A DNA stretch of 61,600 bases from Escherichia phage PTXU04: the sequence record NC_048193.1. One strand, given 5' to 3'. The notes under the pieces are model-generated. The model saw nothing but the letters and a program-made list of their open reading frames with translations, was not told where the DNA came from and searched no databases. Numbering within the stretch: the stretch's first letter is position 1; the number at the start of each line of letters is the position of its first letter. Below, piece by piece: positions 22,649 through 53,096 of this stretch. Position numbers and translations under genes: made by a program.

Positions 22649-22689
22649 ATGTGCTATGCTTCCCCTATCAACAAGGGGGAGCATTTCTA

Positions 22690-25600: not shown

Positions 25601-28600
25601 ACGGCATTACCCTGAAGGAAACCATCGACCGTGCGTATGCCCGTGGCGATAAAGTTGACTCCCGTGACATGTCGGCACCAGCCAGACATTACGTGGCCTA
25701 CAAAGAAGCTCGCGTACCGAAGAAGACTGACAAGCCGGACGTTACCCCGAACGTCGACTATCACACGCTGGTAGGTAAAACTTTCGAGGAAGACGGCGAG
25801 ACGTTCACCGTCAAGTCTATTCACGACACGTACCTGGCTACCGAAGACTCACAAGGTCGTCGTGAGATTTTCGGCAAGGATTACGCTAAGCGTAAGATCG
25901 ACAAGCAGTCCGGCGCGGCCAGCGTTAAGCCTGCGACCGAGAAGAAAGGGATGTCACCTGAAGATGTGGCTGTGGTTGCTACCGACTTCCTGAAGAAGTT
26001 CAAAGGTGCGCAGGCAATCAACATGTCCGTCATGCAGCGTCAGGAAGACATGGGTATCGACCTGCCGGAAGGTAGCGTACTGCTCGGCTTCTACGATGCT
26101 GGCAACGTGAGCGCCAAGCTGATCTCTGAAAACCTGACCAGCAAGGAAGAAGTGGAAGCGCTGTTGCGTCACGAAATCATCGTGCACTACGGCCTGCGCG
26201 CTCGCCTGTCTAAACCGGAATACGACGCTGAGATGGATAAAATCCTGGCCGCTGATAAGTCCCCGGCGCTGGCGAAGTATTTCAAAACTGTACGCGAGCA
26301 ATACAGCGACCTGTATGACATGAACTCACCTGACGCACAACGCATGATGGCTGAAGAAGTCCTGGCGCTGGCGGCAGAAAACCCGGCTATCCTGGAGAAG
26401 TCCAACGTCATTACCCGCGTGATTGAAGCTCTGCGTCAGTTGATGATTAAAGCCAAACTGATTGACGGTCGCGCCAGCATGGAGTCAGTACGCCAGCTTA
26501 TTCAGGCCAATGCTCAGTACCTGCGTGACAACACTGTCAACCGTGACGACGTGCGTAAGTCTCTGCCGCCGATGCAATACAGCGCGCCGAAGAACTTTGC
26601 CGCCAGCCTGAAAAAGAAAAATGACATCGAGTCTGCGGAAGTGGACGAAGACATCAAGCAGGGTATGCGTGACACCATGTACCGCGATGACCGCTCTCTG
26701 TTCCAGCGCATCAAAGACATCATGAAAGACAACGGTCTGACGATGGAAGGCTTGTATCAGAAAGGCGTGGATGACCTGTACACCATCGCCAAATATGAGA
26801 AGGCTGGCAACAATGGTGAACTGCGTCAGGGTAAAGAGTCAGCGTACAAGATGGCAATGCTGGCGAAGAACGTGAACAGCACCGTGGCCGTCGCAATGAA
26901 CCACGGCGCTCCGGTATACAAAGACGGCGGCATCAGCCTGAACAAGAACACCAAAGGCTTCACCGAAATCTTCAAGCCAGTGCTGGAGATGAAAGGTAAC
27001 ATGCTGCCAGTGTGGGAATACTGGGCGGGTGCTGTGCGTGCTAAGCGCTTGATGGAAGAAGGCCGCGAAAACCTGTATACCGAGAAGCAGATTAAAGACA
27101 TCATCGACTATGTTAACCGTCGCCCGGAAATGCGTAAGGTGTTCAACCAGGCACACAAAGACTGGCGTGAGTTCAACAAAGCTATCCTCGACTTCGGTGA
27201 GCAAACTGGCATCGTGGATCCTGAGCAGCGTAAACTGTTCGAGTCCGATGACTACGTTCCGTTCTACCGTGTGGATGAGGAAGTGGACCGTGTGACAGCA
27301 CCGTCTGGAAAACGTGGCCTCGCTGATCAGTCTTCCGGTATCCGCCGTCTGAAAGGTGGCGCTGGTAAGATGGACATTCTGGAGAACATGGCGCGTAACG
27401 TTAACCACATGATCACCTCCGGCTACAAGAACGCGGCCATGCAGAAGGTGCGTGACATCACCATCAACGCAGCGCTGGAAGAAGTACCGCATAACTTCAA
27501 GCCAGTCGGCATCAGCAACGAGCAGATGAAACGTGCGCTGACCAACCTGGGTCTGAAGGTTGAAGGTATGACCGCTGAGCAGATGGCGCAATACTCCAAC
27601 CTGTTCACCGCAGTAGCACCGCAGGGCGCTAACATTATCTCCGTGCGTGAAGGTGGTAAGCCGAAGTATTACGAAGTGACGGATCCTCAGTTGTTGGAAG
27701 CTATCGCAGGTGTTGGCCCGGAAGCCGTTGATACCCTCATCAACATTCTCGGCTGGCCTAAGCGTGTGTTCACCGCAGCCGTGACGTCAACGCCTAACTT
27801 CGTTATGACCAACTTCGTACGTGACGTGATGGGTAACTATGTGCAGATGGCTAAAGCAACTGGCCGCAACGAGACGTCAACGATTGTCAAAGATGTACTG
27901 ACATTCCGTCCGTTCTTTAAAGCGTTCCAGGGTGCGATGCGTTCTATCCGTAACGATAACATGACTGTCGATTACCATGTGGCTGGCGGCATGATGGGTG
28001 GTTATGACAACTCACGTCCAGAGTCGGTTGCCAAAAACCTGCGCAAGCTGGAGAAAGGCGGCACCATCATTAACTCACCGAAGAAGCTGTGGGAAATGTA
28101 CAGCAAGTTGCTGACCGCATCTGAACAGGCCACGCGCATGGGTGTGTACGAAGATGTCCTGAAGCACACTGGGGATCCGGTGGAAGCGGCATACCAGTCT
28201 AACGATGTGCTGAACTTCAGCCGCCGTGGTAGCAGTCGTTTGACCAAAGCGGTCATGGCGATCACCCCGTTCCTGAATGCCCGTGTACAGGGTCTGGACC
28301 GTATGGTGCGCGGTGGTAAAGAGAACCCGAAAGCCTTCATGCTAAAAGGTGCTCTGCTTGTTGGTGCAACGATGGCCCTTATGGCAATCAACGCAGACGA
28401 CGAACGTTACTGGGCGCTGCCGGAACACGAACGTGATTCCTTCTGGATCATCTTCGCTGGCGACACTCGCTACCGTATCCCGAAACCGTTCGAACTGGGA
28501 GCACTGTTCGGCACTATCCCTGAGCGTGCATTCGAAGCGCTGTACCGTGATGACCGTATGTTCGGTGCACGCATGGGCTTCATGCTGGGTAACACCTTCG

Positions 28601-29283
28601 CGATGGACTGGCCTCAATTCTTCAAGCCAATCTACGAAGACCAGACCAACATGAACAGCTTTACTCAGCGTCCGGTTGTACCGCAGTCACTGCAACGTCT
28701 GGAAGCTAACCAGCAGTACAGCACCACGACGCCGGAATGGATTAAGGATGTGAGTAAGGCGTTACCTGAAGCTGCCCCGGAATGGATGCGTAGTCCGCTG
28801 CGTCTCCAGCATATGATTGAAGGTTACACCGGAACAGTCGGTCAGTACATCATCGGCGTAACGGACGTGGCCTACCGCAAAGGAACGGGTACCGAAAAAG
28901 TTGCCCCGGCTAAAAAGGATTTTGATTACCCGGTGGTAAAAACTTTCGTACGTGGCGGTGTGTCCGGCGACAAATACACCGACCGTCTGTACCAGATGAG
29001 CGAGAAGGCTGGTCAAACGTACGGTACCCTGAAGGCGTACAAAGACCAGAAGAACATGCAGGCGTATCGGGAGTTCAAGACCGAGAAGGCCAGCGTGTTG
29101 TCTGCCCGTAAGTCAATTGAGAAAGGCGTTGCCCGGATGCAGAAGTACAACCGCCAGACGAAAGAGATTTACGCGAACGACAGTATGTCACCTGAAGCGA
29201 AGCGTGCGGAACTGGACGCCTTACAGGTTAAGAAGAACGAACTGGCGAAAGAATTGAGTGACAAATATTGGATGTTGTTTTAA
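22690..29283 (+). CDS. giant virion-associated protein (~2200 aa; putative internal/ejection protein)
   Basis: ORF-track frame 22651-29283; start moved to ATG 22690 with AAGGGGGAG RBS. No P-loop or polymerase motif recognised; last gene of the structural block; followed by hairpin plus T8 (29324-29354). Confidence 0.55.
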   Translation: MASNIDLSGLDLSQPNQQPATKKSEKTAPAIDLSTVNFDLSDVDFSGIGNEKAVTEPAKEDSWGDVIYKSLAAMPERMQRSWQGIKQGVAVKGQDLTDGVLAERLRNDPSYAAELGIDPATFTAAEGDTYATKLQKNKALYAAIDKAKAAELNKDADFVAARDEGLRLSNEIAKTAPKTGDEWSAKNLVSTILTGAQDMSPAILTSILLKRPVAGLAEMTGQAYGSYYQDSIDKGLSPAEADNRATMFAALEPITEAVPLGLIMKKGATSLTDLGKSAMAEGIQESATQAIQNGYDIGVLDEDMTVGQFLNDVAFSGVTGAGVGGVLHGAVQAPGMVKDWKDNRSVNNAIGDAAAESGQAVEGVDPNEYDAVRAEMGGGDVLDQMVEQASPAITEARKSAYMEARAQGMSPAEAMAASREVGEVDAMDQMVSELFDSPDSIYYANKASATNAPQSVAQMVQQQVAQGDIGPLPGETKGLPSPGQTSTIAMPGPVAQVKEATGYNPRGAAEESPVLAAVQQKLEAPALPPQVTEAVVPPALPPKAEVTPPALPQIDVAAALEPTVPAAEPAAAEVKPKPALFARTKKKAAPEVDTEALAAEEARQAELKAKGDEAVAKYVERESVRPALPGKKPPAIQVTNKILKEANERGVDVGNKVNWNGKEYSVDKFQGRAVRLVDENGNGHIVDAREINVPSVVPEGMKRVSQETKDARERYDLAPVEFEDERNLGEMVTDAQQATDDVLAQSAEVQRDLGEMIAEKEKDNAAIEGESTRVTDVEGRVGFEPVEGTDLDGKYAKDSHGEVRKITGVQGRRFVLDNGDIMIRRIGDTNVMDAPPKGARKAMSMEERIVANTLQGMLHSLNDTKRPLNKLRENMSHASNQVDEQYRHLYAPLKGKTRAAMRKELEDRMSSIAEQSPKGLSKESQATADRLREKSSARAESFEKSLEDFTRGMKPLVRRNYIRALEKMQPDGITLKETIDRAYARGDKVDSRDMSAPARHYVAYKEARVPKKTDKPDVTPNVDYHTLVGKTFEEDGETFTVKSIHDTYLATEDSQGRREIFGKDYAKRKIDKQSGAASVKPATEKKGMSPEDVAVVATDFLKKFKGAQAINMSVMQRQEDMGIDLPEGSVLLGFYDAGNVSAKLISENLTSKEEVEALLRHEIIVHYGLRARLSKPEYDAEMDKILAADKSPALAKYFKTVREQYSDLYDMNSPDAQRMMAEEVLALAAENPAILEKSNVITRVIEALRQLMIKAKLIDGRASMESVRQLIQANAQYLRDNTVNRDDVRKSLPPMQYSAPKNFAASLKKKNDIESAEVDEDIKQGMRDTMYRDDRSLFQRIKDIMKDNGLTMEGLYQKGVDDLYTIAKYEKAGNNGELRQGKESAYKMAMLAKNVNSTVAVAMNHGAPVYKDGGISLNKNTKGFTEIFKPVLEMKGNMLPVWEYWAGAVRAKRLMEEGRENLYTEKQIKDIIDYVNRRPEMRKVFNQAHKDWREFNKAILDFGEQTGIVDPEQRKLFESDDYVPFYRVDEEVDRVTAPSGKRGLADQSSGIRRLKGGAGKMDILENMARNVNHMITSGYKNAAMQKVRDITINAALEEVPHNFKPVGISNEQMKRALTNLGLKVEGMTAEQMAQYSNLFTAVAPQGANIISVREGGKPKYYEVTDPQLLEAIAGVGPEAVDTLINILGWPKRVFTAAVTSTPNFVMTNFVRDVMGNYVQMAKATGRNETSTIVKDVLTFRPFFKAFQGAMRSIRNDNMTVDYHVAGGMMGGYDNSRPESVAKNLRKLEKGGTIINSPKKLWEMYSKLLTASEQATRMGVYEDVLKHTGDPVEAAYQSNDVLNFSRRGSSRLTKAVMAITPFLNARVQGLDRMVRGGKENPKAFMLKGALLVGATMALMAINADDERYWALPEHERDSFWIIFAGDTRYRIPKPFELGALFGTIPERAFEALYRDDRMFGARMGFMLGNTFAMDWPQFFKPIYEDQTNMNSFTQRPVVPQSLQRLEANQQYSTTTPEWIKDVSKALPEAAPEWMRSPLRLQHMIEGYTGTVGQYIIGVTDVAYRKGTGTEKVAPAKKDFDYPVVKTFVRGGVSGDKYTDRLYQMSEKAGQTYGTLKAYKDQKNMQAYREFKTEKASVLSARKSIEKGVARMQKYNRQTKEIYANDSMSPEAKRAELDALQVKKNELAKELSDKYWMLF

Positions 29284-41999: not shown

Positions 42000-44420
42000 A
42001 TGACCTATAAGCCTGAACAGGCGCAGTTGTTTTATGCCGCGCTAACTGGAATGCAAAACCCGCCGCTCGTCTGGCAGTGGTTCTGTGACTATGACAAAGA
42101 AAGACGCGACCTGGCTGGCTGGGAATACGCGTACATGAATCCGGCAAAGCTGGCGGACCTTCAGGCTCGCGGTTGCGGCGTGTTCACATCTGTCAACGGT
42201 TCGACTACAGGCGGTCGTGGTAAGAATGACATCGACATCTTCCGTGCAGTGTTCATGGATAGTGACGGTGCTCCGTTCCCGGATCAGTGGCCTGTTCCGC
42301 CACACGCTATCGTCAAGCGCGACGACACGCATTATCACGCCTACTGGTTTATCGACGGTGACTGCTCCGCTATGGAGTGGATGATCGCACAGAAGCAGAT
42401 CGCTCTGCACTTCGGTAGCGACGAGTCAATGGTAAACCCTGACCGCGTTATGCGTGTACCGGGATTCCTCCACCAGAAGTCTCTGGACAACCGCGTTCTC
42501 TACGAACTGGCGGAACTCCACGCTGACATGCCACGCTACAAACTGCGCGACGTTATCTCACGCTTCACGTTAACCGACGAGAAGATGATGAAGATGGGCG
42601 AATGGGTGCGCCAGCGCAGCGCTCAGTACGTGGGCGGCATGGATGACTTCGACGACAACGAGCACAACTGTAAACAGTTTATCACCTATCTGAAGAACCG
42701 CGCCGAGCAATCCATCAGCGGCCAGGGTGGTAACCATGTGCTGTTTAAGACTGCCGCCGCCGGACGTGACTACCAACTGTCACCGCAGAAAACCTACGAG
42801 TTAATGCTGGACTACTGGGACGCCAACAACGAACCGCCGTGGGGCGATGAGATGTGGCCGACCGTCCAGAACGTTTACAAGTACAGCCAGAATGGTGTCG
42901 GTGCGCGCTCGTTCGCTGCACGTCTCACTGAGCAGGCCGCTATGCTGCCAGGTATGTCACTGACTCCGGTTGAGCAGGCTATCTATATGCCGGAAGCGCC
43001 AGTCGTTGACGAGAAACAACAGATGGCTGAGTCGGTAGCACGCCTGGCCGCCGCTATTGAGTCCGGCGATGACAGCATGATGCAACCTGACGACATGGTT
43101 TACAGTTCCAACCATACGCGTAACGCCATGCTGTTCATGTGGCTGCATTGCCGCAAGGGTGAGTACCTTGTGGATGACGGTATCATGTACCAGTTCAACG
43201 GTAAAATTTACGAAGCACAAGCACCGGACTTTCTGAAGGTTAAGCTGGCTACCGAGATGCAACTCAGCTTCCCGTCTGAGTCAACCATCAACGGTACCGC
43301 CAACCTCATCAAGCTGTTGCTGGCACGCTCTGCTCCGTCCAAATGGCCTGAGTGGAAAGGTGATCCCGACAAGGATACGTCCGGTTTGATTTGCTTCAAC
43401 AACGGCATCCTGGATATTAACGAGAATCTCTGGTATGAGCACACGCACTTACTGCGTATTCGTACCATTCTCCCGTTTGATTATGACTATAAGGCCACTT
43501 GCCCTACGTGGGAAAACTTCCTGCGTGAAGTGTGGGGTAACAGTAAATACGAACCGCTGATTGAACAGTTACAGATGTGGTTTGGCTATATGCTTATGGA
43601 TGATACCAGTCAACAGAAGATGCTCATCATGTCCGGTACCGGGGGCGCTGGTAAGTCGACCATCATGCGTACGCTTAACAAAATGGTAGGCGATTACAAC
43701 TGCGCGTTCCCTAACCTGAACGGTTTAACTAAAGATTCGCAACTGGCCGCTTTATTCGATAAACCTGTGGCAATCCTGAACGACGTATCTGATCCGTCTC
43801 CATCCAACGCTACCGCAGTAGTTGAACGTATTAAAGGTATCGTGGGTCAGGATAAATTAACGATTGACCGCAAATACCTGACGTCGATTGAGGTCAGTTT
43901 CCGGTGCCGTCTGAACGTTACCTGCAACGCCTTCCCGCGTTTGTCGGAATCATCGAACGCTATGCTGCGTCGTGGTCTGTTCTTCACAACCAAGCGTTCG
44001 TTTGTCGGCAAGGAAGACATGACACTGGAACCTCGTATCGACAAAGAGATGACTGGTATCATCAACTGGGCGATCGCAGGTATCAAAAAGTTACAGAAGA
44101 TTGGCAAGCTGGAAAACCACCCTTGCATGAATGACGATATTGAAATCTTCCGCATGTTGACATCGCCGCTTGAAACGTTCGTACAGGATGCACTGGTATA
44201 CCGCGAGGATGCTTACATTACCATCCCTGATCTGTGCAAACGTTACAAAGCGTGGTGCACACTGAACGAAGGATCGCGCATGTTCAGCAACCAGTCACTG
44301 ATAAGTAAGATCGGTGTATTCCCCGGCTTGAGTCTGGCGAAACGTGGCCGCGACTATGTACTGGAAGGTGCTTACCTCCGACCGGACGATGAACCAGACA
44401 ACGGAGTGATTTACGAATGA
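42000..44420 (+). CDS. DNA primase (prim-pol-like N-terminus plus P-loop NTPase C-terminus)
   Basis: 806 aa; N-terminal DIDIFRAVFMDSDGAPF ... HYHAYWF resembles bifunctional primase-polymerase; Walker A MSGTGGAGKST in the C-terminal half, as in phage/plasmid P4-type primases. Confidence 0.7.
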   Translation: MTYKPEQAQLFYAALTGMQNPPLVWQWFCDYDKERRDLAGWEYAYMNPAKLADLQARGCGVFTSVNGSTTGGRGKNDIDIFRAVFMDSDGAPFPDQWPVPPHAIVKRDDTHYHAYWFIDGDCSAMEWMIAQKQIALHFGSDESMVNPDRVMRVPGFLHQKSLDNRVLYELAELHADMPRYKLRDVISRFTLTDEKMMKMGEWVRQRSAQYVGGMDDFDDNEHNCKQFITYLKNRAEQSISGQGGNHVLFKTAAAGRDYQLSPQKTYELMLDYWDANNEPPWGDEMWPTVQNVYKYSQNGVGARSFAARLTEQAAMLPGMSLTPVEQAIYMPEAPVVDEKQQMAESVARLAAAIESGDDSMMQPDDMVYSSNHTRNAMLFMWLHCRKGEYLVDDGIMYQFNGKIYEAQAPDFLKVKLATEMQLSFPSESTINGTANLIKLLLARSAPSKWPEWKGDPDKDTSGLICFNNGILDINENLWYEHTHLLRIRTILPFDYDYKATCPTWENFLREVWGNSKYEPLIEQLQMWFGYMLMDDTSQQKMLIMSGTGGAGKSTIMRTLNKMVGDYNCAFPNLNGLTKDSQLAALFDKPVAILNDVSDPSPSNATAVVERIKGIVGQDKLTIDRKYLTSIEVSFRCRLNVTCNAFPRLSESSNAMLRRGLFFTTKRSFVGKEDMTLEPRIDKEMTGIINWAIAGIKKLQKIGKLENHPCMNDDIEIFRMLTSPLETFVQDALVYREDAYITIPDLCKRYKAWCTLNEGSRMFSNQSLISKIGVFPGLSLAKRGRDYVLEGAYLRPDDEPDNGVIYE

Positions 44421-44911
44421 AACCTTTCTACGCAAGCAAGACACCAAAGGAGTTACGCGATTGCTGGGGTACGCCCCAGTGGTTGATTGACCGCCTGTCG
44501 CTGGAGTTTGATTTCGCAATCGACGCGGCGGCAGATGAGCACAACAGAAAGTTCCCCCTGTATTTCAAGCAGGGATTAGGCTTTAACTGGGCGGACTTCT
44601 GCCCGGAAGGTAAATGGGTATGGAACAACCCTCCGTTCTCCTTAGTGGACCCGTGGGTGGATCAGTGGATACAGTGCAGCGAATCGGACCGTGGTGTGGT
44701 GTCAATCGTCAACGCACAGACTGCCGCTCGCTGGTTTCACAAGGCGCTGGAGGCTTGCTCGGAGGCCAGGTTTAGCATCGGGCGTGTGGCCTTCATTCAT
44801 CCCGTTACCGGAAAGCGTGTAGCCGGAAACAACCTGGGGCAAGTGCTGTTCGTGTTTGAACCGGGCAAGCTGGGCGAAAAAAGAATTGGCACTTTCAAAG
44901 GAACCAAGTAG
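44417..44911 (+). CDS. DNA N6-adenine methyltransferase (phage Dam-like)
   Basis: 164 aa; WGTPQWLIDRL ... FDFAIDAAA ... NPPFS motifs characteristic of the phage N6A-methyltransferase family. Confidence 0.8.
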   Translation: MKPFYASKTPKELRDCWGTPQWLIDRLSLEFDFAIDAAADEHNRKFPLYFKQGLGFNWADFCPEGKWVWNNPPFSLVDPWVDQWIQCSESDRGVVSIVNAQTAARWFHKALEACSEARFSIGRVAFIHPVTGKRVAGNNLGQVLFVFEPGKLGEKRIGTFKGTK

Positions 44912-44938
44912 AATGGATTACTTGACAAAGGAGGATGT

Positions 44939-45127
44939 ATGAAAATCACACCACTGAAGGAATGGATTGAAGGTCACCGCTCGTTAACGGCTGCGGCTGA
45001 AGTGCTCGACGTTCCAAAACAAAACCTGTCGTTTGCTTTGAACAAAGTGAAGGGCGCTACGTTTGTGCTGGAGGAAGACGACGGGACACTGCGGTTGTTA
45101 CGTGAGGTTGCAAAAAGGGGCGCATAA
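44939..45127 (+). CDS. hypothetical protein
   Basis: 62-aa ORF with AAGGAGG RBS; stop in the loop of the terminator at 45118-45142. Confidence 0.4.
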   Translation: MKITPLKEWIEGHRSLTAAAEVLDVPKQNLSFALNKVKGATFVLEEDDGTLRLLREVAKRGA

Positions 45128-45142
45128 GCGCCCTTAGTTTTT
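45118..45142. terminator. rho-independent terminator at the convergent junction
   Basis: GGGCGC-ATAA-GCGCCC stem-loop followed by TTAGTTTTT; the stop codons of 44939-45127 (+) and 45141-45323 (-) flank or overlap it. Confidence 0.5.
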
Positions 45143-45323
45143 ACATTAATATCAGCAGTTGCACACATCCTATAATCAGACCTACCAGGAAAATAGTCGC
45201 ACCCGCATAAAATAAAATCGTTGCATTATCGGTATCACTCACCACAGCTTTGAAAGACTTTACTATCCCCGATAAAGCCATCGCGATGATCGCTATCAAC
45301 ATTAAACCCGCAGCATAAAACAT
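45141..45323 (-). CDS. small membrane protein
   Basis: 60 aa; two hydrophobic helices (LMLIAIIAMALSGIV, ILFYAGATIFLVGLIIGCV). Confidence 0.4.
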   Translation of the reverse strand: MFYAAGLMLIAIIAMALSGIVKSFKAVVSDTDNATILFYAGATIFLVGLIIGCVQLLILM

Positions 45324-45332
45324 AATTACCTC

Positions 45333-45584
45333 TCAGTGAAATGTCAGTTTGAGTTGTTCAAAGATTACCGGATCATCAAGCTGAATCTCCAGTTCTTCAT
45401 CATGCACCTGATACTCTTCGACATCACTCGCCGCCAGCACCAGTTGCACACCGTCAACCACACCCAGTACAGCAAACACTCCCTGACTGCGGTCACTGTT
45501 TACGATACTGAGCATGTCGCTCAGCACGTCTCCCAGCCCGTTTGGGTTAACGCAAAGGTCGATATGTTTAGGTTCATTTGACAT
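45333..45584 (-). CDS. hypothetical acidic protein
   Basis: ORF-track frame 45333-45647 trimmed to ATG 45584 (AGGAGG RBS). Confidence 0.4.
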   Translation of the reverse strand: MSNEPKHIDLCVNPNGLGDVLSDMLSIVNSDRSQGVFAVLGVVDGVQLVLAASDVEEYQVHDEELEIQLDDPVIFEQLKLTFH

Positions 45585-45888
45585 GGCGGCTGGCCTCCTG
45601 TGCGTCAATGATTGCTTCGTTTGTGGCGACAATGAGATCCACCACATGCTTTGCGAGTACGGTCAGATTCCCGTGTCGCGCTTGATTCACCACGTTGATC
45701 GCGGTGTTGGTGTCCGTCATCATTTCCACGCCGTCAATCAGGTCGACAATGAATTTGTGGCGGTCGTACTCCCGGTTAAAGCTGGCTATGTCCGGGTGGT
45801 TATCAAGATGAAAGCAGCAGTGATAACCCTTTGGTAAATTGGCAACACGATCACCTACTCGCGGCCCGTCGATTAAAAGGATGGTCAT
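45574..45888 (-). CDS. hypothetical protein
   Basis: 104-aa ORF, translationally coupled to neighbours. Confidence 0.4.
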   Translation of the reverse strand: MTILLIDGPRVGDRVANLPKGYHCCFHLDNHPDIASFNREYDRHKFIVDLIDGVEMMTDTNTAINVVNQARHGNLTVLAKHVVDLIVATNEAIIDAQEASRHVK

Positions 45889-46136
45889 ATAAAGCTCGCC
45901 TTAATTAGCGCGGCCTCCCGGTGGCCTCTGTGAATGGTAACGACTCCAGCCGTTTCAAGTTTCTTCACCGCCTTGCGCACATGCTCTTTGTCGTAGCCGG
46001 TATAGGAGGCCAGTTCATCGAACGTTACAGGTGCGTCAGCCGATGCTATACAGCATAGCAGGTAACGACCGAACACGTTAACCTTGTGTTGCGCCATCTG
46101 GTAGTCTTCGCCCGGTGTGAATACCTTAATTGCCAC
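45885..46136 (-). CDS. winged-helix DNA-binding protein (putative transcriptional regulator)
   Basis: 83 aa; FDELASYTGYDKEHVRKAVKKLETAGVVTI resembles a MarR/winged-HTH recognition helix. Confidence 0.4.
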   Translation of the reverse strand: MAIKVFTPGEDYQMAQHKVNVFGRYLLCCIASADAPVTFDELASYTGYDKEHVRKAVKKLETAGVVTIHRGHREAALIKASFI

Positions 46137-46746
46137 GGTAGTAAGCCTCCACTGCGCTGGTTATCAAACTGATTTTGTCGTCATTAAAATCATCGGCATC
46201 ATACGCAGCTTTGACCGTGGCGATCACGTCGTTGGCTTTGTTAAGTTTAGATTCCAGGTCAACAACTCTGTCACCGAGACGGTTGGATTCTTTAATCATT
46301 TCTATAGCCTGACTGAACACGCCAGCAGTTGCTAACCCTTTGTCGGCATCCGTCGCCACGCGCAGACCTTCAACCCACTTGCGGAAATACTTCAGGGATT
46401 CGTCGTCCTGTTTAGCGTCGTTTTCCAGGTCTTCTACTCTACGACACAGACGGGTGTTACGCTCACCGCTGTTTCTCAACTCATCACGCAGAGTGGTTTC
46501 AGTCTGTTTGGCTTTCTCCAGTGCGCGCTCATAGTCATACACTTGTTGATTTAATGACTTCAGGTTTTGCTTTAAGATCTCCACTTGCTTAAGAGCATCA
46601 TTATACGCGTCGTTGCTCGGATAAATTACAGGTGCCGGGGCGTCAGCGTTACGCAGCTTGTTAGCCAGCGACTTGACGTTATTCATCGTCATACCTTCGG
46701 CGATCAGGACCAGTGCTTCATTAAAAGTAAGGGTGATAGTTTTCAT
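46126..46746 (-). CDS. coiled-coil hypothetical protein
   Basis: 206 aa; extended heptad-like charged regions. Confidence 0.45.
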   Translation of the reverse strand: MKTITLTFNEALVLIAEGMTMNNVKSLANKLRNADAPAPVIYPSNDAYNDALKQVEILKQNLKSLNQQVYDYERALEKAKQTETTLRDELRNSGERNTRLCRRVEDLENDAKQDDESLKYFRKWVEGLRVATDADKGLATAGVFSQAIEMIKESNRLGDRVVDLESKLNKANDVIATVKAAYDADDFNDDKISLITSAVEAYYRGN

Positions 46747-47009
46747 TTAACGCGCTCCACTTCGTAGGCAAATGCTGAGTAGGTGTTGGCCGCCAGCAGT
46801 CCGGCGGTCGGGGATACAGGTAATTTGAGTTTCTTCAATGCCAGGCGCACGACCATTACGCGCAACCAGATCACGGCTTGCTCCTTATCAGGTGTGGTTT
46901 GAGTGATACGACGGTGATTGTCATCGACAACGTAGTAGCCAGCGGCTTCACGTTTGATGTGGTAGGTTGCTTCTGCTTCACGCAGGATATTGATTTGGAA
47001 TCTGAACAT
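46743..47009 (-). CDS. hypothetical protein
   Basis: 88-aa ORF downstream of a predicted promoter at 47045-47073. Confidence 0.45.
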   Translation of the reverse strand: MFRFQINILREAEATYHIKREAAGYYVVDDNHRRITQTTPDKEQAVIWLRVMVVRLALKKLKLPVSPTAGLLAANTYSAFAYEVERVK

Positions 47010-47044
47010 GACTATTTACCCCATTGCTCGTTAGCGATAGGGTA

Positions 47045-47073
47045 AATATAGGTTAGTTAAATCTGACTGTCAA
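47045..47073 (-). promoter_or_regulatory. putative sigma70-like early promoter
   Basis: On the - strand: -35 TTGACA (47073-47068), 17-nt spacer, -10 TATATT (47050-47045); about 35 nt upstream of ATG 47009. Confidence 0.45.
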
Positions 47074-47078
47074 TAGAT

Positions 47079-47774
47079 TTATTCGTAGGCTTCTAACGCG
47101 AGTCTACAAATATGTGATCTAACGCAATCATTTTTGTGGAAGAGAATACCCTGAACGTCATCAGAGTCCTGGAACCGTGCTAACGCATCGCTGAGTCCGT
47201 CCGGCACGCCCTTCGGTAAGTCGCACTGAGTGATGTCACCGTTAACGACCACGATGCAGTTGTCACCGATACGCGTCAGGAAGAGTTTCATCTGCTTAGG
47301 TGTGACGTTCTGCGCTTCGTCGAGGATGATAAACGCATTGTCAAAGCTGCGACCCCGCATGTAGGCGAACGGTGCAATCTCAATCTTGCCGTGCTCCATG
47401 CAGTATTTGAAATGCGTCTCGCCCAGGCGTTTAATCAGCGTGTCCTTAACCGGACGGAAGTACGGATCAAACTTCTCTGCCAGACCTCCCGGCAGGAAGC
47501 CCATGTCTTCGTCAGCATTGAGTACGGGACGTGTGACAACGATGCGTTCGACAATCTTATCGGTGAGATACTCCGCAGCTTTGCAGGCTGCAATAAACGT
47601 TTTACCGCACCCAGCCTCGCCGCTCGCAAATATAAGTGACTTAGTTCGGATGGCCTCAAGATAGGATTCCTGATTTACGGTGCGCGGTTCAATCGGCGAT
47701 TTGTCTGCGCGGGTGACGGGGGAAGGGTTGGTGTTGAACTCTACAACTTCAGCGGTGTTGCGTTTCTTACTCAT
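47079..47774 (-). CDS. phoH: PhoH-like ATPase
   Basis: ORF-track frame 47079-47816 trimmed to ATG 47774 (GAGGTG RBS); Walker A GEAGCGKTF, Walker B ILDEAQN. Confidence 0.75.
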   Translation of the reverse strand: MSKKRNTAEVVEFNTNPSPVTRADKSPIEPRTVNQESYLEAIRTKSLIFASGEAGCGKTFIAACKAAEYLTDKIVERIVVTRPVLNADEDMGFLPGGLAEKFDPYFRPVKDTLIKRLGETHFKYCMEHGKIEIAPFAYMRGRSFDNAFIILDEAQNVTPKQMKLFLTRIGDNCIVVVNGDITQCDLPKGVPDGLSDALARFQDSDDVQGILFHKNDCVRSHICRLALEAYE

Positions 47775-47793
47775 AGAGCACCTCGTTTGAGAG

Positions 47794-47811
47794 GGGCGCG
47801 GAATTGCGCCC
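47794..47811 (-). terminator. GC hairpin between genes
   Basis: GGGCGC-GGAATT-GCGCCC stem-loop between the stop of 47820-48020 and the PhoH RBS. Confidence 0.35.
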
Positions 47812-47819
47812 ATCATTTA

Positions 47820-48020
47820 CTACATCCAGCCAGCAATCGCCCCCGGCAACCAGGTGAAAATGCCCACGATGCGTATGACAGTTTCAGCAGTGGAGTCGGA
47901 CGCGTTACCACCTCCAATATACGCCAGGCAGTGTACCAGGTTCAAGAACCAGCCGATCCAGCCGCCGATGAACACTATCCAAAGACCTAACACTGCCAAA
48001 AGACCAAAGTATTTACCCAT
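47820..48020 (-). CDS. small membrane protein
   Basis: ORF-track frame 47820-48107 trimmed to ATG 48020 (GGGGGAG RBS); two TM helices. Confidence 0.4.
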   Translation of the reverse strand: MGKYFGLLAVLGLWIVFIGGWIGWFLNLVHCLAYIGGGNASDSTAETVIRIVGIFTWLPGAIAGWM

Positions 48021-48501
48021 TTTTACGACTCCCCCGTGGCCGCGTAACGTGACGCGTGATGTTGTGCTGTTTGCACAGTTTATAAATGCGTGATGAAAAC
48101 ACCCCAATTACAGCAGCGTAATCGCTGGCGGTCATGGTTAGCATCGCTTTACGCAGATGATTGATGTCTACCTTCACGCCCTTCTCAGGACTTTTCCAGC
48201 CGTACTTCTTGCGCACCGTATCAAGCTGGCGCGGTAGGATCCCCAGCAGTTTGGCAGCTTCGACACGCGACTTACGCTCGACGATCATTTTGTTCATCGG
48301 CGTGTTTGCTACTGGTACCCGGTACCGCTCGATAGGTTGCCAGTTCTGCCAGACTACCCGATGTTTGTAACGATGGTTGACACGCTGGACCGCCCGATAT
48401 TTTCCTTTGTGCGTCACGACGCAGTAAGGTTTGTTGAGCACCGCAGACATACGTTCAGCCTGCTTGATGGCCTCGTCCAGTGTGTCACAGGTGATTGCCA
48501 T
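48013..48501 (-). CDS. putative DNA-binding protein
   Basis: 162 aa; basic, with HTH-like segment RVEAAKLLGILPRQLDTVRKKYGW. Confidence 0.4.
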   Translation of the reverse strand: MAITCDTLDEAIKQAERMSAVLNKPYCVVTHKGKYRAVQRVNHRYKHRVVWQNWQPIERYRVPVANTPMNKMIVERKSRVEAAKLLGILPRQLDTVRKKYGWKSPEKGVKVDINHLRKAMLTMTASDYAAVIGVFSSRIYKLCKQHNITRHVTRPRGSRKNG

Positions 48502-48692
48502 TAGCGACGAGCCTTACCACGGCTACGGCCAGGGAGTGCACGAACTTCTAAAGGAATGATGCGAACACCTTTACGGGTATAGCGCTTCGTGTACGATACG
48601 ATCTCGGTGCGCTGCGGTGGTGCCAGGTCACGCAGAGCAGCGGCGAAAGGTGTAGAGAAAGCGTTACCGAACAGCATTTTAAATAAGCTCAT
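48501..48692 (-). CDS. hypothetical basic protein
   Basis: 63-aa ORF with AGGAAA RBS, downstream of the promoter at 48728-48756. Confidence 0.4.
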   Translation of the reverse strand: MSLFKMLFGNAFSTPFAAALRDLAPPQRTEIVSYTKRYTRKGVRIIPLEVRALPGRSRGKARR

Positions 48693-48727
48693 TTTGATTT
48701 TCCTATTGTCGCGTTTGTAGAATAATG

Positions 48728-48756
48728 AATTTAGTATAGTCGTCCCTGACTGTCAA
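48728..48756 (-). promoter_or_regulatory. putative sigma70-like early promoter
   Basis: On the - strand: -35 TTGACA (48756-48751), 17-nt spacer containing CAGGGACG, -10 TAAATT (48733-48728). Confidence 0.35.
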
Positions 48757-48760
48757 GTAA

Positions 48761-49390
48761 TTAATCCGCGCTAATGAATGAATCTACATCCGGCGGCCAC
48801 ACGTCTTGCGATTGCGGCGGTAACGCGGGTTTGTTATTGAGTTTGGCGTAAGCCTTACACACCCACTCAACCTGGTACCGGGCATCATGCAGCGCGTTAT
48901 GATACTGGATATGTGCCGGACGCGTGCGGGGCATCTGCATACCTGCAAGCATCATGATTGTGCGCATGTCGTAGATATTCCAGTATTTCCACGGGTATTG
49001 ATGTCCATACGTGCTGATCACAGGGTTGGTTTGACGTAGCCACCATTCAAGCTGGGCGATGTCCATCACCGATCCGTTACCCCAAATGCCGGAGTTGCCC
49101 AGGTTGTATTTATAGAACCACTCACGCAGGCTACGCGCCACGTTGCGCGGGTCGCTGGTACCGTTGTACGCTTCAGCCCTGGCCGCTTCGTCCTGACTTT
49201 CCCACCACTTCAGGGTAGAAAGGCTGGGCGTGCCGTATTTCTGCGCCAGGTTGCGGTCCATGCGCTCGTAAAACTCTGCCACAATCTCACCGCTGGTAAT
49301 GTCAAACGCTACCAGGCCGATGGTAAGGATTGGACCGTTTGGCTCAACGCTGAGGTTCTCAACGTCTGCCATTACGTGAATATTACTCAC
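48761..49390 (-). CDS. 3'-5' exonuclease (DnaQ-like, DEDDh)
   Basis: 209 aa; ADVENL (Exo I D-x-E) and YHNALHDARYQ (Exo III H-x4-D) motifs. Confidence 0.55.
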   Translation of the reverse strand: MSNIHVMADVENLSVEPNGPILTIGLVAFDITSGEIVAEFYERMDRNLAQKYGTPSLSTLKWWESQDEAARAEAYNGTSDPRNVARSLREWFYKYNLGNSGIWGNGSVMDIAQLEWWLRQTNPVISTYGHQYPWKYWNIYDMRTIMMLAGMQMPRTRPAHIQYHNALHDARYQVEWVCKAYAKLNNKPALPPQSQDVWPPDVDSFISAD

Positions 49391-49626
49391 GGTTTAATCT
49401 CCTTCAGTGAGTCGCGCCATTCACCCGGTGGCAACTCAAGTTGGGGGCAGTCGGTGTCAAAGCACGTACCGATACCGCTTAACAGACCGTCTTCAGGCCA
49501 CCAGATAAAATTACGCAGCTTAGGTTCGCCGACGAACGCGTAAACAGTCCCGTCACTGTCAGCCGCCAGGTGTGTAGCGTTATCCGGTACATCGACATCG
49601 TGACCGTAATAATTTACTGTTTTCAT
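49387..49626 (-). CDS. hypothetical protein
   Basis: 79-aa ORF, 4-nt overlaps with flanking genes. Confidence 0.4.
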   Translation of the reverse strand: MKTVNYYGHDVDVPDNATHLAADSDGTVYAFVGEPKLRNFIWWPEDGLLSGIGTCFDTDCPQLELPPGEWRDSLKEIKP

Positions 49627-50156
49627 TTATTACTCTCCCCATCCAGTACAGCAGCACACAGGCTATCAACCTGCACCACGATCACCCGGTCCGAAAGCGC
49701 TTCGAATGCTGCGCAAACTTTAGGGTCATCCTCAAAGCACGTAAATTTCTCAGTGCCGTAGGTCTTCAGCAGGCGGAGCAGGGCATCAGCTTTGAACTCT
49801 TCCGCGCTGCGGTGGTCATCCATCGGTCGCATCTGCAACTTAATGAGCGTGCGGCTCAACTCCAGATCATTATGCAGGCGGTCCATCGTCGGCAGGTAGG
49901 CAGACTTACCGCGCCCGGTGAGGAATCGCACATCTTCGCCACTGGCTAACAGTTGTTTGATAATAGCCAACATGTTAGGGATCGGCTTATCACCACGGCA
50001 CGCACCATTAAACTGCGCCCAGGCTTCGGTGCTGTTGCGGTTGTCGCCAGTTGGCATCAGGTGCGCGCGGTGGCGATTGTCGTACAGGGTACCGTCTAAA
50101 TCACAGATGTAGATCATTTCAATATCATCTCCAGGACTTTGTAGAAAAAGTAACAC
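49623..50156 (-). CDS. HAD-superfamily phosphatase-like protein
   Basis: 177 aa; N-terminal ICDLDGTLYD (DxDGT motif of HAD phosphatases/nucleotidases). Confidence 0.5.
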   Translation of the reverse strand: MLLFLQSPGDDIEMIYICDLDGTLYDNRHRAHLMPTGDNRNSTEAWAQFNGACRGDKPIPNMLAIIKQLLASGEDVRFLTGRGKSAYLPTMDRLHNDLELSRTLIKLQMRPMDDHRSAEEFKADALLRLLKTYGTEKFTCFEDDPKVCAAFEALSDRVIVVQVDSLCAAVLDGESNK

Positions 50157-50172
50157 AGCACGATAAGAAATA

Positions 50173-50514
50173 TTAACGCGATGATTTGTTCCATAACTTT
50201 AAAGTCTCCGTAAAAATATACTCGGCCAGGTAGGTTAGTGCTTCATGGTTGTCATGGTCAACCCTGATCCCTACGTGATTTAAAACATCCCATGCTGAGT
50301 GTATAGCTTCGTGCATCACCAGTGACGGTGAAGGCTCCCTGATATACACCACACATGGCCCTATGTGCTCAACGGTAGCGAAGGCGTTTGTTAATGCGTA
50401 ATCATCGCCCTTGCGGTCCGGGAAGTCCTTCAGGTATTTTTCAAGACTGAAGTAGACCCGGAGTTTTCCGGGGTAGATTTTGAATTTGATGATGCCGTCT
50501 GCCATAGTACCCAC
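50173..50514 (-). CDS. small HExxH-motif protein (possible zinc metallopeptidase-like)
   Basis: 113 aa; HEAIHSAW contains a HExxH zinc-binding signature. Confidence 0.4.
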   Translation of the reverse strand: MGTMADGIIKFKIYPGKLRVYFSLEKYLKDFPDRKGDDYALTNAFATVEHIGPCVVYIREPSPSLVMHEAIHSAWDVLNHVGIRVDHDNHEALTYLAEYIFTETLKLWNKSSR

Positions 50515-50699
50515 TCGTTTCGCTCATCGCCCGGTACCAGCCAGCCTTCTTTCACCAGTTGGTCGCACGTTTCATCAAGACTGGCGGGAACAACCTTCGC
50601 CCCCGTCAGCGCCCAGCGGTGGCCGCCTACTTGCTGCGGGTAGTGGTACAGCTTCGCACCCGCTTTAAGCTCGACCGTCAGCACATAGCCGCGCATCAT
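50430..50699 (-). CDS. hypothetical protein (overlaps 50173-50514 in another frame)
   Basis: 89-aa ORF filling the gap to the next gene; the ~75-85 nt overlap lowers confidence. Confidence 0.3.
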   Translation of the reverse strand: MMRGYVLTVELKAGAKLYHYPQQVGGHRWALTGAKVVPASLDETCDQLVKEGWLVPGDERNEWVLWQTASSNSKSTPENSGSTSVLKNT

Positions 50700-50980
50700 G
50701 ACTTGCTTAACTCCAGACCGTCCAGAGTGAAGTCAAGGATTGCCGTCGGGTCATCCTTGCGGATCAGCTGCGCCATAATGCGTACAGCACGATCGCAGGT
50801 GTTTGGTGTGACCAGTGGCATCCCACCGCCGGAGATAATGCACGCCGGAATCTTATCGGCTTCCGTCACAATATACGTTGTGGTGAAACTGTATTTGTGA
50901 GTTTTAATGTTAGCGTGTGCTACGTTCATGCCTACAGCCATTGCCGCGTATGCAGCCACAATCATAATAATGTATTTCAT
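50696..50980 (-). CDS. secreted/periplasmic protein with signal peptide
   Basis: 94 aa; N-terminal MKYIIMIVAAYAAMAVGMNVAHA looks like a Sec signal peptide with AHA cleavage site. Confidence 0.45.
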   Translation of the reverse strand: MKYIIMIVAAYAAMAVGMNVAHANIKTHKYSFTTTYIVTEADKIPACIISGGGMPLVTPNTCDRAVRIMAQLIRKDDPTAILDFTLDGLELSKS

Positions 50981-51312
50981 TTTAAAGTCCTCAATGATAG
51001 GAAAAGTTTTTCGCGGCGCGACTCAAACGCCCGGCGACAGTCGTCGATTGCGGCTTGTGCTGTAAGGTACGCATTACTTTCGTACTCACGTTCATCGTTA
51101 GCGCGAGCAACGCATACCCATGTACCGTTACGATAACGCTTCAGTAAATGCGAATCGCGTTTGTATTGACATGCACCCATATTGTCAAAGCTGATCAGTT
51201 CCCAGCCTTCCGGTGCGATACTCAGTGCTTCGTTTACGTTCACTCGATTAACCCTCTGTGTTGTTGGTGAACTAAATATAATTGATGGCTTCCATGCCGT
51301 CAAGTAAATCAT
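50977..51312 (-). CDS. hypothetical protein (start uncertain)
   Basis: 111-aa ORF; a predicted promoter (51275-51303) lies inside its first codons, so an alternative GTG start at 51243 (AGAGGG RBS) is plausible. Confidence 0.4.
   Translation of the reverse strand: MIYLTAWKPSIIFSSPTTQRVNRVNVNEALSIAPEGWELISFDNMGACQYKRDSHLLKRYRNGTWVCVARANDEREYESNAYLTAQAAIDDCRRAFESRREKLFLSLRTLK
51275..51303 (-). promoter_or_regulatory. putative sigma70-like early promoter
   Basis: On the - strand: -35 TTGACG (51303-51298), 17-nt spacer, -10 TATATT (51280-51275). Confidence 0.4.
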
Positions 51313-51525
51313 TTACCAACTAGCAAAACATTTATCGGTCGGTTGGCGGATCATCCATTCACCATAAATAAACTTAATCGTTAGAAACGTGTCGTTGCGG
51401 TTACCTTTAATCGCCTTAACTTTTAGCGCCCGTCTAAGGTTCCGCCAGCGCGGCTCCCATACCAGATCGCCAGGGTTAAGTTTGCCGTAGGTAGTCAGGC
51501 GGAAGTGTGGTTTATTTGTTGCCAT
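51313..51525 (-). CDS. hypothetical protein
   Basis: ORF-track frame 51313-51573; likely start at ATG 51525 to limit overlap with the upstream gene. Confidence 0.35.
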   Translation of the reverse strand: MATNKPHFRLTTYGKLNPGDLVWEPRWRNLRRALKVKAIKGNRNDTFLTIKFIYGEWMIRQPTDKCFASW

Positions 51526-52165
51526 CGGATGGTACCCCACACAGCGCGTTAAGCGTGGACACATCAAGCGCAATCTCGGTTGACTGCGGTTTCTCGGTCG
51601 CCGGGATTAATTCAGCCGCTTCCGGCCAGGCTTTCAACAGCGCAGCAACATTGCGGAACGGCTTAAGCTGGGCTTTCAGTGTGGAGTGAAGGTTCTCGTA
51701 GTCCTTGCGCAGCGCCTTAGCGTCGGCATCGATCGCCATAAGCTCATCGCGTGCGGATTCATACGGGTAGACCAGACCTTCACCAACAGGCCAGGCGGGT
51801 ACGATGCAATGCTCGACGTCAGCGCCGCTGTCAGCGAACAATGACCGCGCCTCATCATAACGGTTGCCGTAGTGCAGACCGTCAATGCGTAAGTTGTGAC
51901 TGTGACCGCACACGTTGACGTAAAAGTAATCGCTCGTTACCTGAGCGTGAACAGTGCCGAACGCTTTTAAGTCGTCATTGATATGATCAGCGTCACGTTT
52001 GAGCGCCAAGATTTCCTCAATGCTCAGACCGGATTGCTTCAGGAAGTAGTCACGGATACGCACAGCCACCGCAGAGCGACGGGCGCAGATGGCCTTGTCG
52101 CGTTCGACGATACCGGATTTGTGCTCGGCGTTGCGTAAGATAGCGTCTATAATTGATTGTTTCAT
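51512..52165 (-). CDS. hypothetical protein
   Basis: 217-aa ORF; no confident motif (a CGHSHN segment is not enough to call a phosphoesterase). Confidence 0.45.
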   Translation of the reverse strand: MKQSIIDAILRNAEHKSGIVERDKAICARRSAVAVRIRDYFLKQSGLSIEEILALKRDADHINDDLKAFGTVHAQVTSDYFYVNVCGHSHNLRIDGLHYGNRYDEARSLFADSGADVEHCIVPAWPVGEGLVYPYESARDELMAIDADAKALRKDYENLHSTLKAQLKPFRNVAALLKAWPEAAELIPATEKPQSTEIALDVSTLNALCGVPSDGNK

Positions 52166-52863
52166 TATTTGTTAGCCTCATATACTGCACGGGCAAAGCC
52201 GCGCGGGGTTAGTGATCGGATGGTTTTAGTCTTCGCAGACTTGCCGCCTAACTTGTGGTACTGTTTGCTGTACCCTGGCGGGATGGGTATTGGCAATTTA
52301 ACAGGATACCGGAAGCCGTTACCCGTCCAAAGGTTTGTAGTCTTCGGATACATGTCGCGCGCTTCGATGTACTCAGGGAAGAACGGATTAATATCATCTT
52401 CCGGCAGGTACCCGGCAAACTCCCACGGCTGGAAAGTATAATCAGGCTTTTGCCATAGCGTTGATAATACTCCGCGCGGGTTCTCCACCATGTACGGCAC
52501 GTTAAACCAGCACCCTAAACCCTCGGCAATGCGTGCGGTCTTCGTGGCCTCAATCTGAAAATCAGGATTCTTCTCACGCTTGCGCGGGAATGCTGGCGCA
52601 CCGGATACCGCTAAATCCGTGCACGGTGGGAACGCAAATATTAAATCCGGTGTTCCCCACTCACCCGCGATCGCCTTCAGAGTCCACAGGCTATCAATCC
52701 AGGCGTTTACGTAGTGAATGTTTGGATGCTCCACTCGGCACCCGAATTTAGTGTAAGGCCCGTGGTCGCCCTCGTCCGCGTTGAAACAGTAGACTGTGTG
52801 ACCAGCCTCCGCCCACGGCTGACCCATCAGGCCGGACCCGTCGAACAGGGACCAGATGATCAT
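52165..52863 (-). CDS. DNA cytosine-C5 methyltransferase-like protein (compact)
   Basis: 232 aa; motif I-like LFDGSG, motif IV-like FPPCTDLAVSG (Pro-Cys), motif VI-like YMVENPRG (ENV-like). Unusually short for a C5-MTase; no obvious target-recognition domain. Confidence 0.45.
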   Translation of the reverse strand: MIIWSLFDGSGLMGQPWAEAGHTVYCFNADEGDHGPYTKFGCRVEHPNIHYVNAWIDSLWTLKAIAGEWGTPDLIFAFPPCTDLAVSGAPAFPRKREKNPDFQIEATKTARIAEGLGCWFNVPYMVENPRGVLSTLWQKPDYTFQPWEFAGYLPEDDINPFFPEYIEARDMYPKTTNLWTGNGFRYPVKLPIPIPPGYSKQYHKLGGKSAKTKTIRSLTPRGFARAVYEANK

Positions 52864-53096
52864 TGCATTTTCTCCAGACCTTTACGCGCACAGTCAACCA
52901 TGCAGCGTATGACGCCTTCAGGATCGTTGACATGCTCCAACATCATTTTACTGACAACGCGCGATATACCATACGTTTGACCTAACACGTCATCATAACC
53001 ACGCCAAACAAACATAATGCGGTCACCATCGCTTGAGATTTCACAGCGAAAACCGTCGATGTATACCAGTTCCAGCAGTTTCATAAAGTCGATCAT
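52860..53096 (-). CDS. hypothetical protein
   Basis: 78-aa ORF, coupled to neighbours. Confidence 0.4.
   Translation of the reverse strand: MIDFMKLLELVYIDGFRCEISSDGDRIMFVWRGYDDVLGQTYGISRVVSKMMLEHVNDPEGVIRCMVDCARKGLEKMQ

Follow-up and report, generated by a model that had tools for sequence, protein, structure and literature searches.

The stretch of DNA analysed here (the window) spans 61,600 bp and is the entire genome of Escherichia phage PTXU04 (NC_048193.1), a podovirus of the genus Xuquatrovirus, and two of its genes, predicted to code for DNA methyltransferases of different chemical classes, are the subject of this report. PTXU04_00045 (44417–44911, plus strand) encodes gp45, a 164-residue phage Dam-type N6-adenine DNA methyltransferase, and PTXU04_00066 (52165–52863, minus strand) encodes gp66, a compact DNMT3-like C5-cytosine DNA methyltransferase of 232 residues belonging to the phrog_757 'Dcm-like' family. 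Immediately downstream of the latter lies PTXU04_00065 (51512–52165, minus strand), coding for gp65, a 217-residue protein with an Nmad5 ('nucleotide modification associated') domain. Both methyltransferase genes are already known and ordinary, and are annotated in the literature for PTXU04 itself. PTXU04 is the type phage, and its description in 2019 reported a genome of exactly 61,600 bp and the order of a primase gene, PTXU04_00044, followed by PTXU04_00045 as a pfam05869 Dam gene (Korf et al., PMC6563267). The label of cytosine DNA methyltransferase for PTXU04_00066 comes from an HHpred re-annotation of 2025, as given in the CRISPRi-ART gene table (PMC11879866 supplement). That table places PTXU04_00045, PTXU04_00065 and PTXU04_00066 at 44417–44911, 51512–52165 and 52165–52863, respectively, and our translations of all three are identical to the proteins that it lists. 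The nearest relatives of PTXU04 among collected phages are the Escherichia phages Pondi (genus Xuquatrovirus) and HelliStehle. In the public record of Pondi (OP136151.1, 20018–21370) the Dcm-like and Nmad5 genes are labelled 'hypothetical protein', and according to the CRISPRi-ART table (PMC11879866) they are likewise 'hypothetical' in the PTXU04 GenBank record. Annotation of PTXU04_00066 and its Pondi ortholog thus trails knowledge of the family, which has a biochemically characterised member.

The product of PTXU04_00045 matches the Pfam Dam family PF05869 with an E-value of 1.3e-29 (103.4 bits; cutoff 28.1) and phrog_111 with an E-value of 8.7e-43, and it passes the NCBIfam equivalog model TIGR01712 for phage N6-adenine methyltransferases marginally (97.4 bits; cutoff 97.05). 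Residues 71–74 (44627–44638, plus strand) read NPPF, a catalytic (D/N)PP(Y/F) motif IV that aligns with the NPPY of the PF05869 Dam-like methyltransferase of phage KarlJaspers (bas06_0042). The two proteins are 32% identical, and gp45 is at the short end for PF05869, whereas the KarlJaspers enzyme is 233 residues long, with about 40 more residues at its N-terminus and an internal insertion. Judged by its sequence, gp45 is an ordinary phage Dam-type N6-adenine enzyme, and its target is most likely GATC. Its start codon overlaps the stop codon of PTXU04_00044 (42000–44420, plus strand), a primase/helicase gene with RepB-primase, D5_N and DUF5906 domains; the overlap is ATGA, and the two genes are translationally coupled within one operon. 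With 98.8% identity in Pondi and 97.6% in HelliStehle, gp45 belongs to the core gene set of the lineage.

The gp66 protein matches the phrog_757 'DNA methyltransferase' profile over its full length (residues 1–232, E 2.1e-84), and three motifs of C5-cytosine methyltransferases can be placed in it. Motif I, FDGSG (residues 7–11; 52831–52845, minus strand), would form the loop that binds S-adenosylmethionine (SAM) and lines up with LFAGIGG in E. coli Dcm and with LFSGAGG in M.HaeIII. Motif IV, P79-P80-C81 (52621–52629, minus strand), contains the predicted catalytic nucleophile, C81, and aligns with C177 of Dcm and the PPC of M.HaeIII. Motif VI, the ENV-like E127-N128-P129 (52477–52485, minus strand), aligns with the ENV of E. 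coli Dcm. Three residues (C81, E127, P129) are invariant throughout a family alignment of 53 sequences, and eight more (F78, P79, N128, K174, T176, R216, S217, P220) reach at least 90% conservation. Because the invariant residues and the conserved F78, P79 and N128 persist at a mean identity of only 37%, the motifs are not chance occurrences. A diverse family profile aligns the same three motifs in register with E. coli Dcm (hhalign, E 0.016) and with M.HaeIII. The alignment to Dcm covers motifs I–VI only, so that motifs VIII and X cannot be mapped residue by residue.

These two later motifs can nonetheless be placed provisionally. The motif VIII-like residues K174-T175-T176 (52336–52344, minus strand) would occupy the position of the canonical R-x-R, as judged from spacing and from a strand in the structural model. 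In the family this region reads Y172-P-K174-x-T176-x-x-W179-x-G181, a spacing that fits R-x-R-x4-G with the arginines replaced by Lys and Thr. The motif X-like segment R216-S217-L-T-P220-R221 (52201–52218, minus strand), preceded by Ile, stands just before the last helix. DNMT3A and DNMT3B have Arg-Ser at motif X, and the putative equivalence of R216-S217 to that pair, or to the canonical Gly-Asn, is drawn from the position ahead of the terminal helix.

To the sequence evidence can be added an AlphaFold model of gp66 (mean predicted local distance difference test score, pLDDT, 90.3; predicted TM-score, pTM, 0.89), which was compared with known structures using Foldseek and a second fold search. 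The earlier note, made from the letters alone, had proposed fold prediction of this protein as a check, and the model shows not an unrelated fold but a class I SAM-dependent methyltransferase fold with the topology of a C5-methyltransferase catalytic domain. Its best Foldseek matches are the catalytic domains of DNMT3A, DNMT3B and DNMT3C together with the prophage methyltransferase 3g7u, and DNA methyltransferases outscore RNA methyltransferases in both fold searches. The mammalian DNMT3A and DNMT3B domains resemble gp66 in their class I fold, in having PC and ENV-type motifs and in the very small size of the target-recognition domain (TRD), although sequence identity is only 13–18%. DNMT3 enzymes differ in being domains of about 280 residues within large multidomain proteins that form oligomers with DNMT3L and read CpG, whereas gp66 is a stand-alone phage protein. 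Compared with the PF00145 enzymes E. coli Dcm, M.HhaI and M.HaeIII, gp66 lacks their TRD of about 80–100 residues and is 100–240 residues shorter.

No sizeable TRD is present between motifs VIII and IX of the model. A motif VIII-like strand (residues 176–181) is followed by a loop of only about 20–35 residues, modelled at lower confidence (pLDDT 70–77; about residues 182–200), and then by C-terminal helices at 201–204 and 210–217. As modelled, gp66 is therefore essentially a bare C5-methyltransferase catalytic domain. Most of what the earlier note had read at this locus is borne out by these results, including the positions of the two open reading frames, the Dam-like enzyme with its NPPF, C5 motifs I, IV and VI in the second protein, the assignment of the pair to different chemical classes (N6-adenine by PF05869, C5-cytosine by fold and catalytic motifs) and, in essence, the want of an evident TRD. 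Its description of gp66 as unusually compact holds against canonical C5-methyltransferases, the fold matches being 291–420 residues long, but does not hold within the family. Homologs of gp66 occur in 1,506 phage records, among them T1-like, Dhillonvirus, Kagunavirus, rV5-like, Klebsiella and Campylobacter phages, and they are recorded under differing labels: Dcm, C5 cytosine methylase or hypothetical. An exhaustive profile search gave 2,023 family clusters at 50% identity. Since nearly all of the full-length ones are 210–260 residues long, compactness is the family norm, and gp66 is neither truncated nor rare.

The characterised member of the family is a close relative of gp66. A 711-bp 'Dcm' gene of phage K42 (95.4% identity to KarlJaspers) triggers the retron Ec86 (10.1101/2023.08.16.553469). 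In the same study expression of K42 Dcm led to 5-methylcytosine (5mC) on the multicopy single-stranded DNA (msDNA) of the retron, detected by liquid chromatography–mass spectrometry, a C82A/E128A/K175A/K176A mutant was inactive, and changing the msDNA sequence CCTGG to AATGG abolished retron Ec86 defence (10.1101/2023.08.16.553469). We find gp66 to be 57% identical over its full length (E 3e-90) to the product of the KarlJaspers (Bas06) gene bas06_0055 (711 bp), of which the K42 gene is a near-identical ortholog; at 232 and 236 residues, respectively, the two proteins share family and architecture. Three of the four residues mutated in K42 Dcm, C82, E128 and K175, are kept in gp66 as C81, E127 and K174. 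DNMT3A was also the structure on which the authors superposed their model of K42 Dcm (10.1101/2023.08.16.553469). KarlJaspers and PTXU04 both also encode a PF05869 Dam-like enzyme, although the settings differ, with KarlJaspers being a siphovirus (Hanrivervirus) that has no Nmad5 gene next to its Dcm-like gene. By analogy with the K42 enzyme, methyl transfer to cytosine C5 by the gp66 family is well supported. Activity and CCWGG dependence are demonstrated for the K42 enzyme only. E. coli Dcm also acts on CCWGG, and a reading of gp66 that carries this probable target over from the K42 homolog has, in our estimate, about even odds of being right.

The simplest interpretation is that PTXU04 encodes two active, site-specific DNA methyltransferases, one N6-adenine and one C5-cytosine, to which we assign a probability of roughly 0.85. 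The present analysis itself shows which genes these are, what fold is predicted, how well the motifs are conserved and to which families the proteins belong; the 5mC was found by others with a 57%-identical homolog, and the targets and the biological role are our deductions. In the proposed mechanism, gp45 and gp66 would be orphan SAM-dependent methyltransferases acting on phage DNA once it has been replicated. The first would make N6-methyladenine, most likely at GATC, and in the second Cys81 would attack C6 of a flipped cytosine while Glu127 contacts N3/N4 of the base, so that the methyl group of SAM is transferred to C5.

Several observations weigh against this interpretation or parts of it. 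The gp66 protein itself has no match to Pfam PF00145 (E ≤ 1) or to NCBIfam, although 13 of 40 relatives reach PF00145 weakly (best E 1.3e-6), and phmmer and profile searches of PDB sequences with gp66 or its family gave no significant match. At motif VIII gp66 has K-x-T in place of R-x-R, and at motif X it has R-S where G-N would be canonical. The fourth residue mutated in K42 Dcm, K176, corresponds to Thr175 in gp66 (52339–52341, minus strand); the position varies across the family, and judging from these sequences it is probably not essential. Residues of about 184–204, where a TRD would be expected, form the segment most unlike KarlJaspers Dcm and include insertions and deletions, so the CCWGG specificity may not carry over to gp66. 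There is also no signature in the numbers of CCWGG or GATC sites in the genome that confirms the proposed targets. CCWGG occurs 176 times against 102 expected from dinucleotide shuffles, but the apparent enrichment is an effect of codon usage and is gone under a synonymous-codon shuffle, which gives 180 ± 10. GATC is depleted to a ratio of 0.77 under the synonymous-codon shuffle, and mild depletion is common to most 4-bp palindromes. Finally, gp45, gp66 and the Nmad5 gene were all scored 'Not Fit' in the genome-wide CRISPRi-ART knock-down screen, where the fitness values reported for the three are -1.13, -2.04 and -2.05 (PMC11879866); both methyltransferase genes are thus dispensable in that laboratory screen. 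As a separate observation, under the synonymous-codon shuffle of the whole window CTAG is found 14 times against 55 expected and AGCT is depleted (ratio 0.66), while GCGC, GTAC and ACGT are enriched (ratios 1.14–1.18).

The alternative that survives best, although we consider it unlikely, is that gp66 is an active C5-methyltransferase with another substrate or role: single-stranded or structured DNA, RNA as for DNMT2, regulation, counter-defence, or a neutral existence as a horizontally transferred accessory gene. The sole substrate demonstrated for the family is an msDNA stem-loop (10.1101/2023.08.16.553469), but the site required in it is a duplex CCTGG within the stem (10.1101/2023.08.16.553469). 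With so small a TRD it is not obvious how a 5-bp site would be read, and the gene behaves as an accessory one. HelliStehle (PQ850607; loci L128, at 14041–14697, and L129) keeps the Dam-like gene (97.6%) and the Nmad5 gene (65%), and no Dcm-like gene was found anywhere in its genome; in Pondi gp66 is 75% identical, compared with 98.8% for the Dam-like gene. The cytosine methyltransferase is an accessory gene of the lineage because HelliStehle is without it, and the 75% identity in Pondi is consistent with this, as is the 'Not Fit' score in the reported screen. Against RNA as the substrate is the ranking of DNA above RNA methyltransferases in both fold searches, and recurrent linkage and fusion of the family with DNA adenine methyltransferases point to DNA. 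Among 80 viral contigs, 27 have a PF05869 Dam-like gene within 1–2 kb of the Dcm-like gene, and in one 563-residue family member (P0268) the compact Dcm-like module is naturally fused to a D12-class Dam methyltransferase. Dam plus Dcm-like is thus a recurrent, sometimes fused phage module.

The Nmad5 neighbour bears on two further alternatives. The gp65 protein matches Nmad5 (PF18757) with an E-value of 1.9e-24, and no recognisable enzyme fold was found for it. The start of its gene overlaps the stop codon of gp66 (TAATG), and the start codon of gp66 in turn overlaps the stop of PTXU04_00067 (52860–53096, minus strand; overlap ATGA), a 78-residue open reading frame of unknown function, and both junctions are translationally coupled. 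A weak match of the 78-residue product to Methyltransf_23 (E 0.12) was regarded as noise. Pairing of Dcm-like and Nmad5 genes within the lineage is seen in Pondi and in one further contig (L087), and an unrelated contig has a cassette of Dcm-like, MT-A70 and Nmad5 genes in that order, its Nmad5 protein being only 30% identical. Nmad5 as an obligate partner of the Dcm-like family was considered and rejected: of 80 viral loci examined with tblastn and an Nmad5 hidden Markov model, Pondi alone has the two genes side by side, and HelliStehle keeps Nmad5 without the methyltransferase. At 40 other Nmad5 loci there is no Dcm-like gene, and the neighbours include ThyX, MT-A70, ParB-HTH, helicase and primase genes. 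A point mutation in a Dhillonvirus nmad5 allows the phage to escape the Tmn defence (PMC11846954). A functional link between gp65 and gp66 is possible, if weakly supported. We give only a slim chance to the more specific proposal that gp66, with no TRD of its own, and the coupled Nmad5 protein form a two-component module, in which Nmad5 would provide DNA targeting or would change either the sites that small phage methyltransferases recognise or the chemistry that they carry out.

It is slightly less probable still that gp66 is no plain methyltransferase and uses a SAM analogue as donor of a carboxymethyl group or some other group, as CmoX does, possibly as part of a hypermodification module with Nmad5. 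CmoX (PDB 8yf3), a phage DNA cytosine C5-carboxymethyltransferase, is a structural match to gp66 comparable to the others. In CmoX an arginine replaces the motif X asparagine and binds the carboxyl of carboxy-S-adenosylmethionine (Cx-SAM), near the group to be transferred; only Cx-SAM is accepted, and CmoA of E. coli can supply it (PMC12783734). The gp66 family conserves Arg216 at or next to the motif X position, a comparison made by position in the chain, and the coupling to an Nmad5 gene and the cassette on the unrelated contig could be taken in the same sense. The K42 homolog, however, gives 5mC in the cmoA+ strain E. coli MG1655 (10.1101/2023.08.16.553469), which is not the product expected of an enzyme restricted to Cx-SAM, and the best structural matches of gp66, DNMT3A and DNMT3B, are genuine methyltransferases. 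CmoX is also larger, with 333 residues against 232, and is accompanied by the phage genes CmoA and CmoY (PMC12783734), whereas neither CmoA nor a CmoY-type ligase, nor hydroxymethylases, kinases or other modification enzymes, were found among 25 open reading frames scanned across 30–61 kb; in the portion examined of the HHpred annotation from the CRISPRi-ART gene table, neither a CmoA nor a CmoY-type ligase is listed (PMC11879866 supplement). Nmad5 is absent from 79 of the 80 other Dcm-like loci, and its presence in HelliStehle without a methyltransferase and its lack of a recognisable enzyme fold also speak against such a module. The suggestion of the earlier note that the short protein could be a non-canonical enzyme or a component of a modified-base pathway is accordingly an unlikely one.

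That gp45 is a non-specific or relaxed adenine methyltransferase, such that the pair gives broad protection, is very improbable, for although it has only 164 residues and no obvious recognition domain, and non-specific adenine methyltransferases are found in phages and prophages (Hia5, Hin1523, Nme1821; PMC3299994), the Hia5 type has a different architecture with DPPY, FxGxG and a recognition region of about 90 residues (PMC3299994), gp45 passes the equivalog model, and HelliStehle has a 97.6%-identical enzyme yet is reported as 'very sensitive to RM systems', that is, to restriction-modification systems (10.1101/2024.09.12.612763). A relationship of the Hia5-type enzymes to PF05869 was entertained as well, but was not confirmed from PMC3299994 and was dropped.

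The preferred reading of two site-specific methyltransferases leaves a narrower role than the broad self-methylation against host restriction put forward in the earlier note. Each enzyme most likely recognises one short site, and the restriction sensitivity of HelliStehle and the 'Not Fit' scores of both genes in the reported screen run counter to a general shield. The likely benefit would be full Dam- and Dcm-type methylation irrespective of the methylation state of the host or the speed of replication, with protection only against those restriction enzymes that such marks block and no broad immunity. In lambda, only about half of the GATC sites have been methylated by host Dam when the DNA is packaged (Drozdz et al., PMC3299994), and this incomplete methylation provides a reasonable rationale for phage-encoded copies. 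The cost would be exposure to retron Ec86, which a Dcm-like enzyme of this kind is able to trigger.

Other features of the window were noted in passing. The leftward early operon to which gp66 belongs also contains (47079–50156, minus strand) genes for PhoH (47079–47816), an Rv2179c-like 3'-5' exonuclease (48761–49390) and a HAD/PNKP-type phosphatase (49623–50156). These constitute a set for nucleic-acid repair or processing that is kept in contig L087 and in HelliStehle. Elsewhere, a 2,210-residue open reading frame (22651–29283, plus strand) is PTXU04_00025, a putative polyvalent protein that is listed as essential ('Fit') in CRISPRi-ART (PMC11879866).

The outcome mainly confirms existing annotation of an already published phage and puts it in better order, and with the exception of the unexplained Nmad5 neighbour the results do not indicate new biology. 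It is reasonable to ask, in structural terms, how a 232-residue enzyme that all but lacks a recognition domain can read a defined site, but the question belongs to the whole family rather than to this locus. If gp66 and Nmad5 did form a module, this would explain the recurrence of Nmad5 beside small methyltransferases such as MT-A70 and its role as a Tmn-sensing determinant in Dhillonvirus. For PTXU04 itself, carriage of gp66 predicts that retron Ec86, in E. coli BL21 for instance, could sense the phage, and that its DNA would contain Dcm-type 5mC even when it is grown on dcm- hosts.

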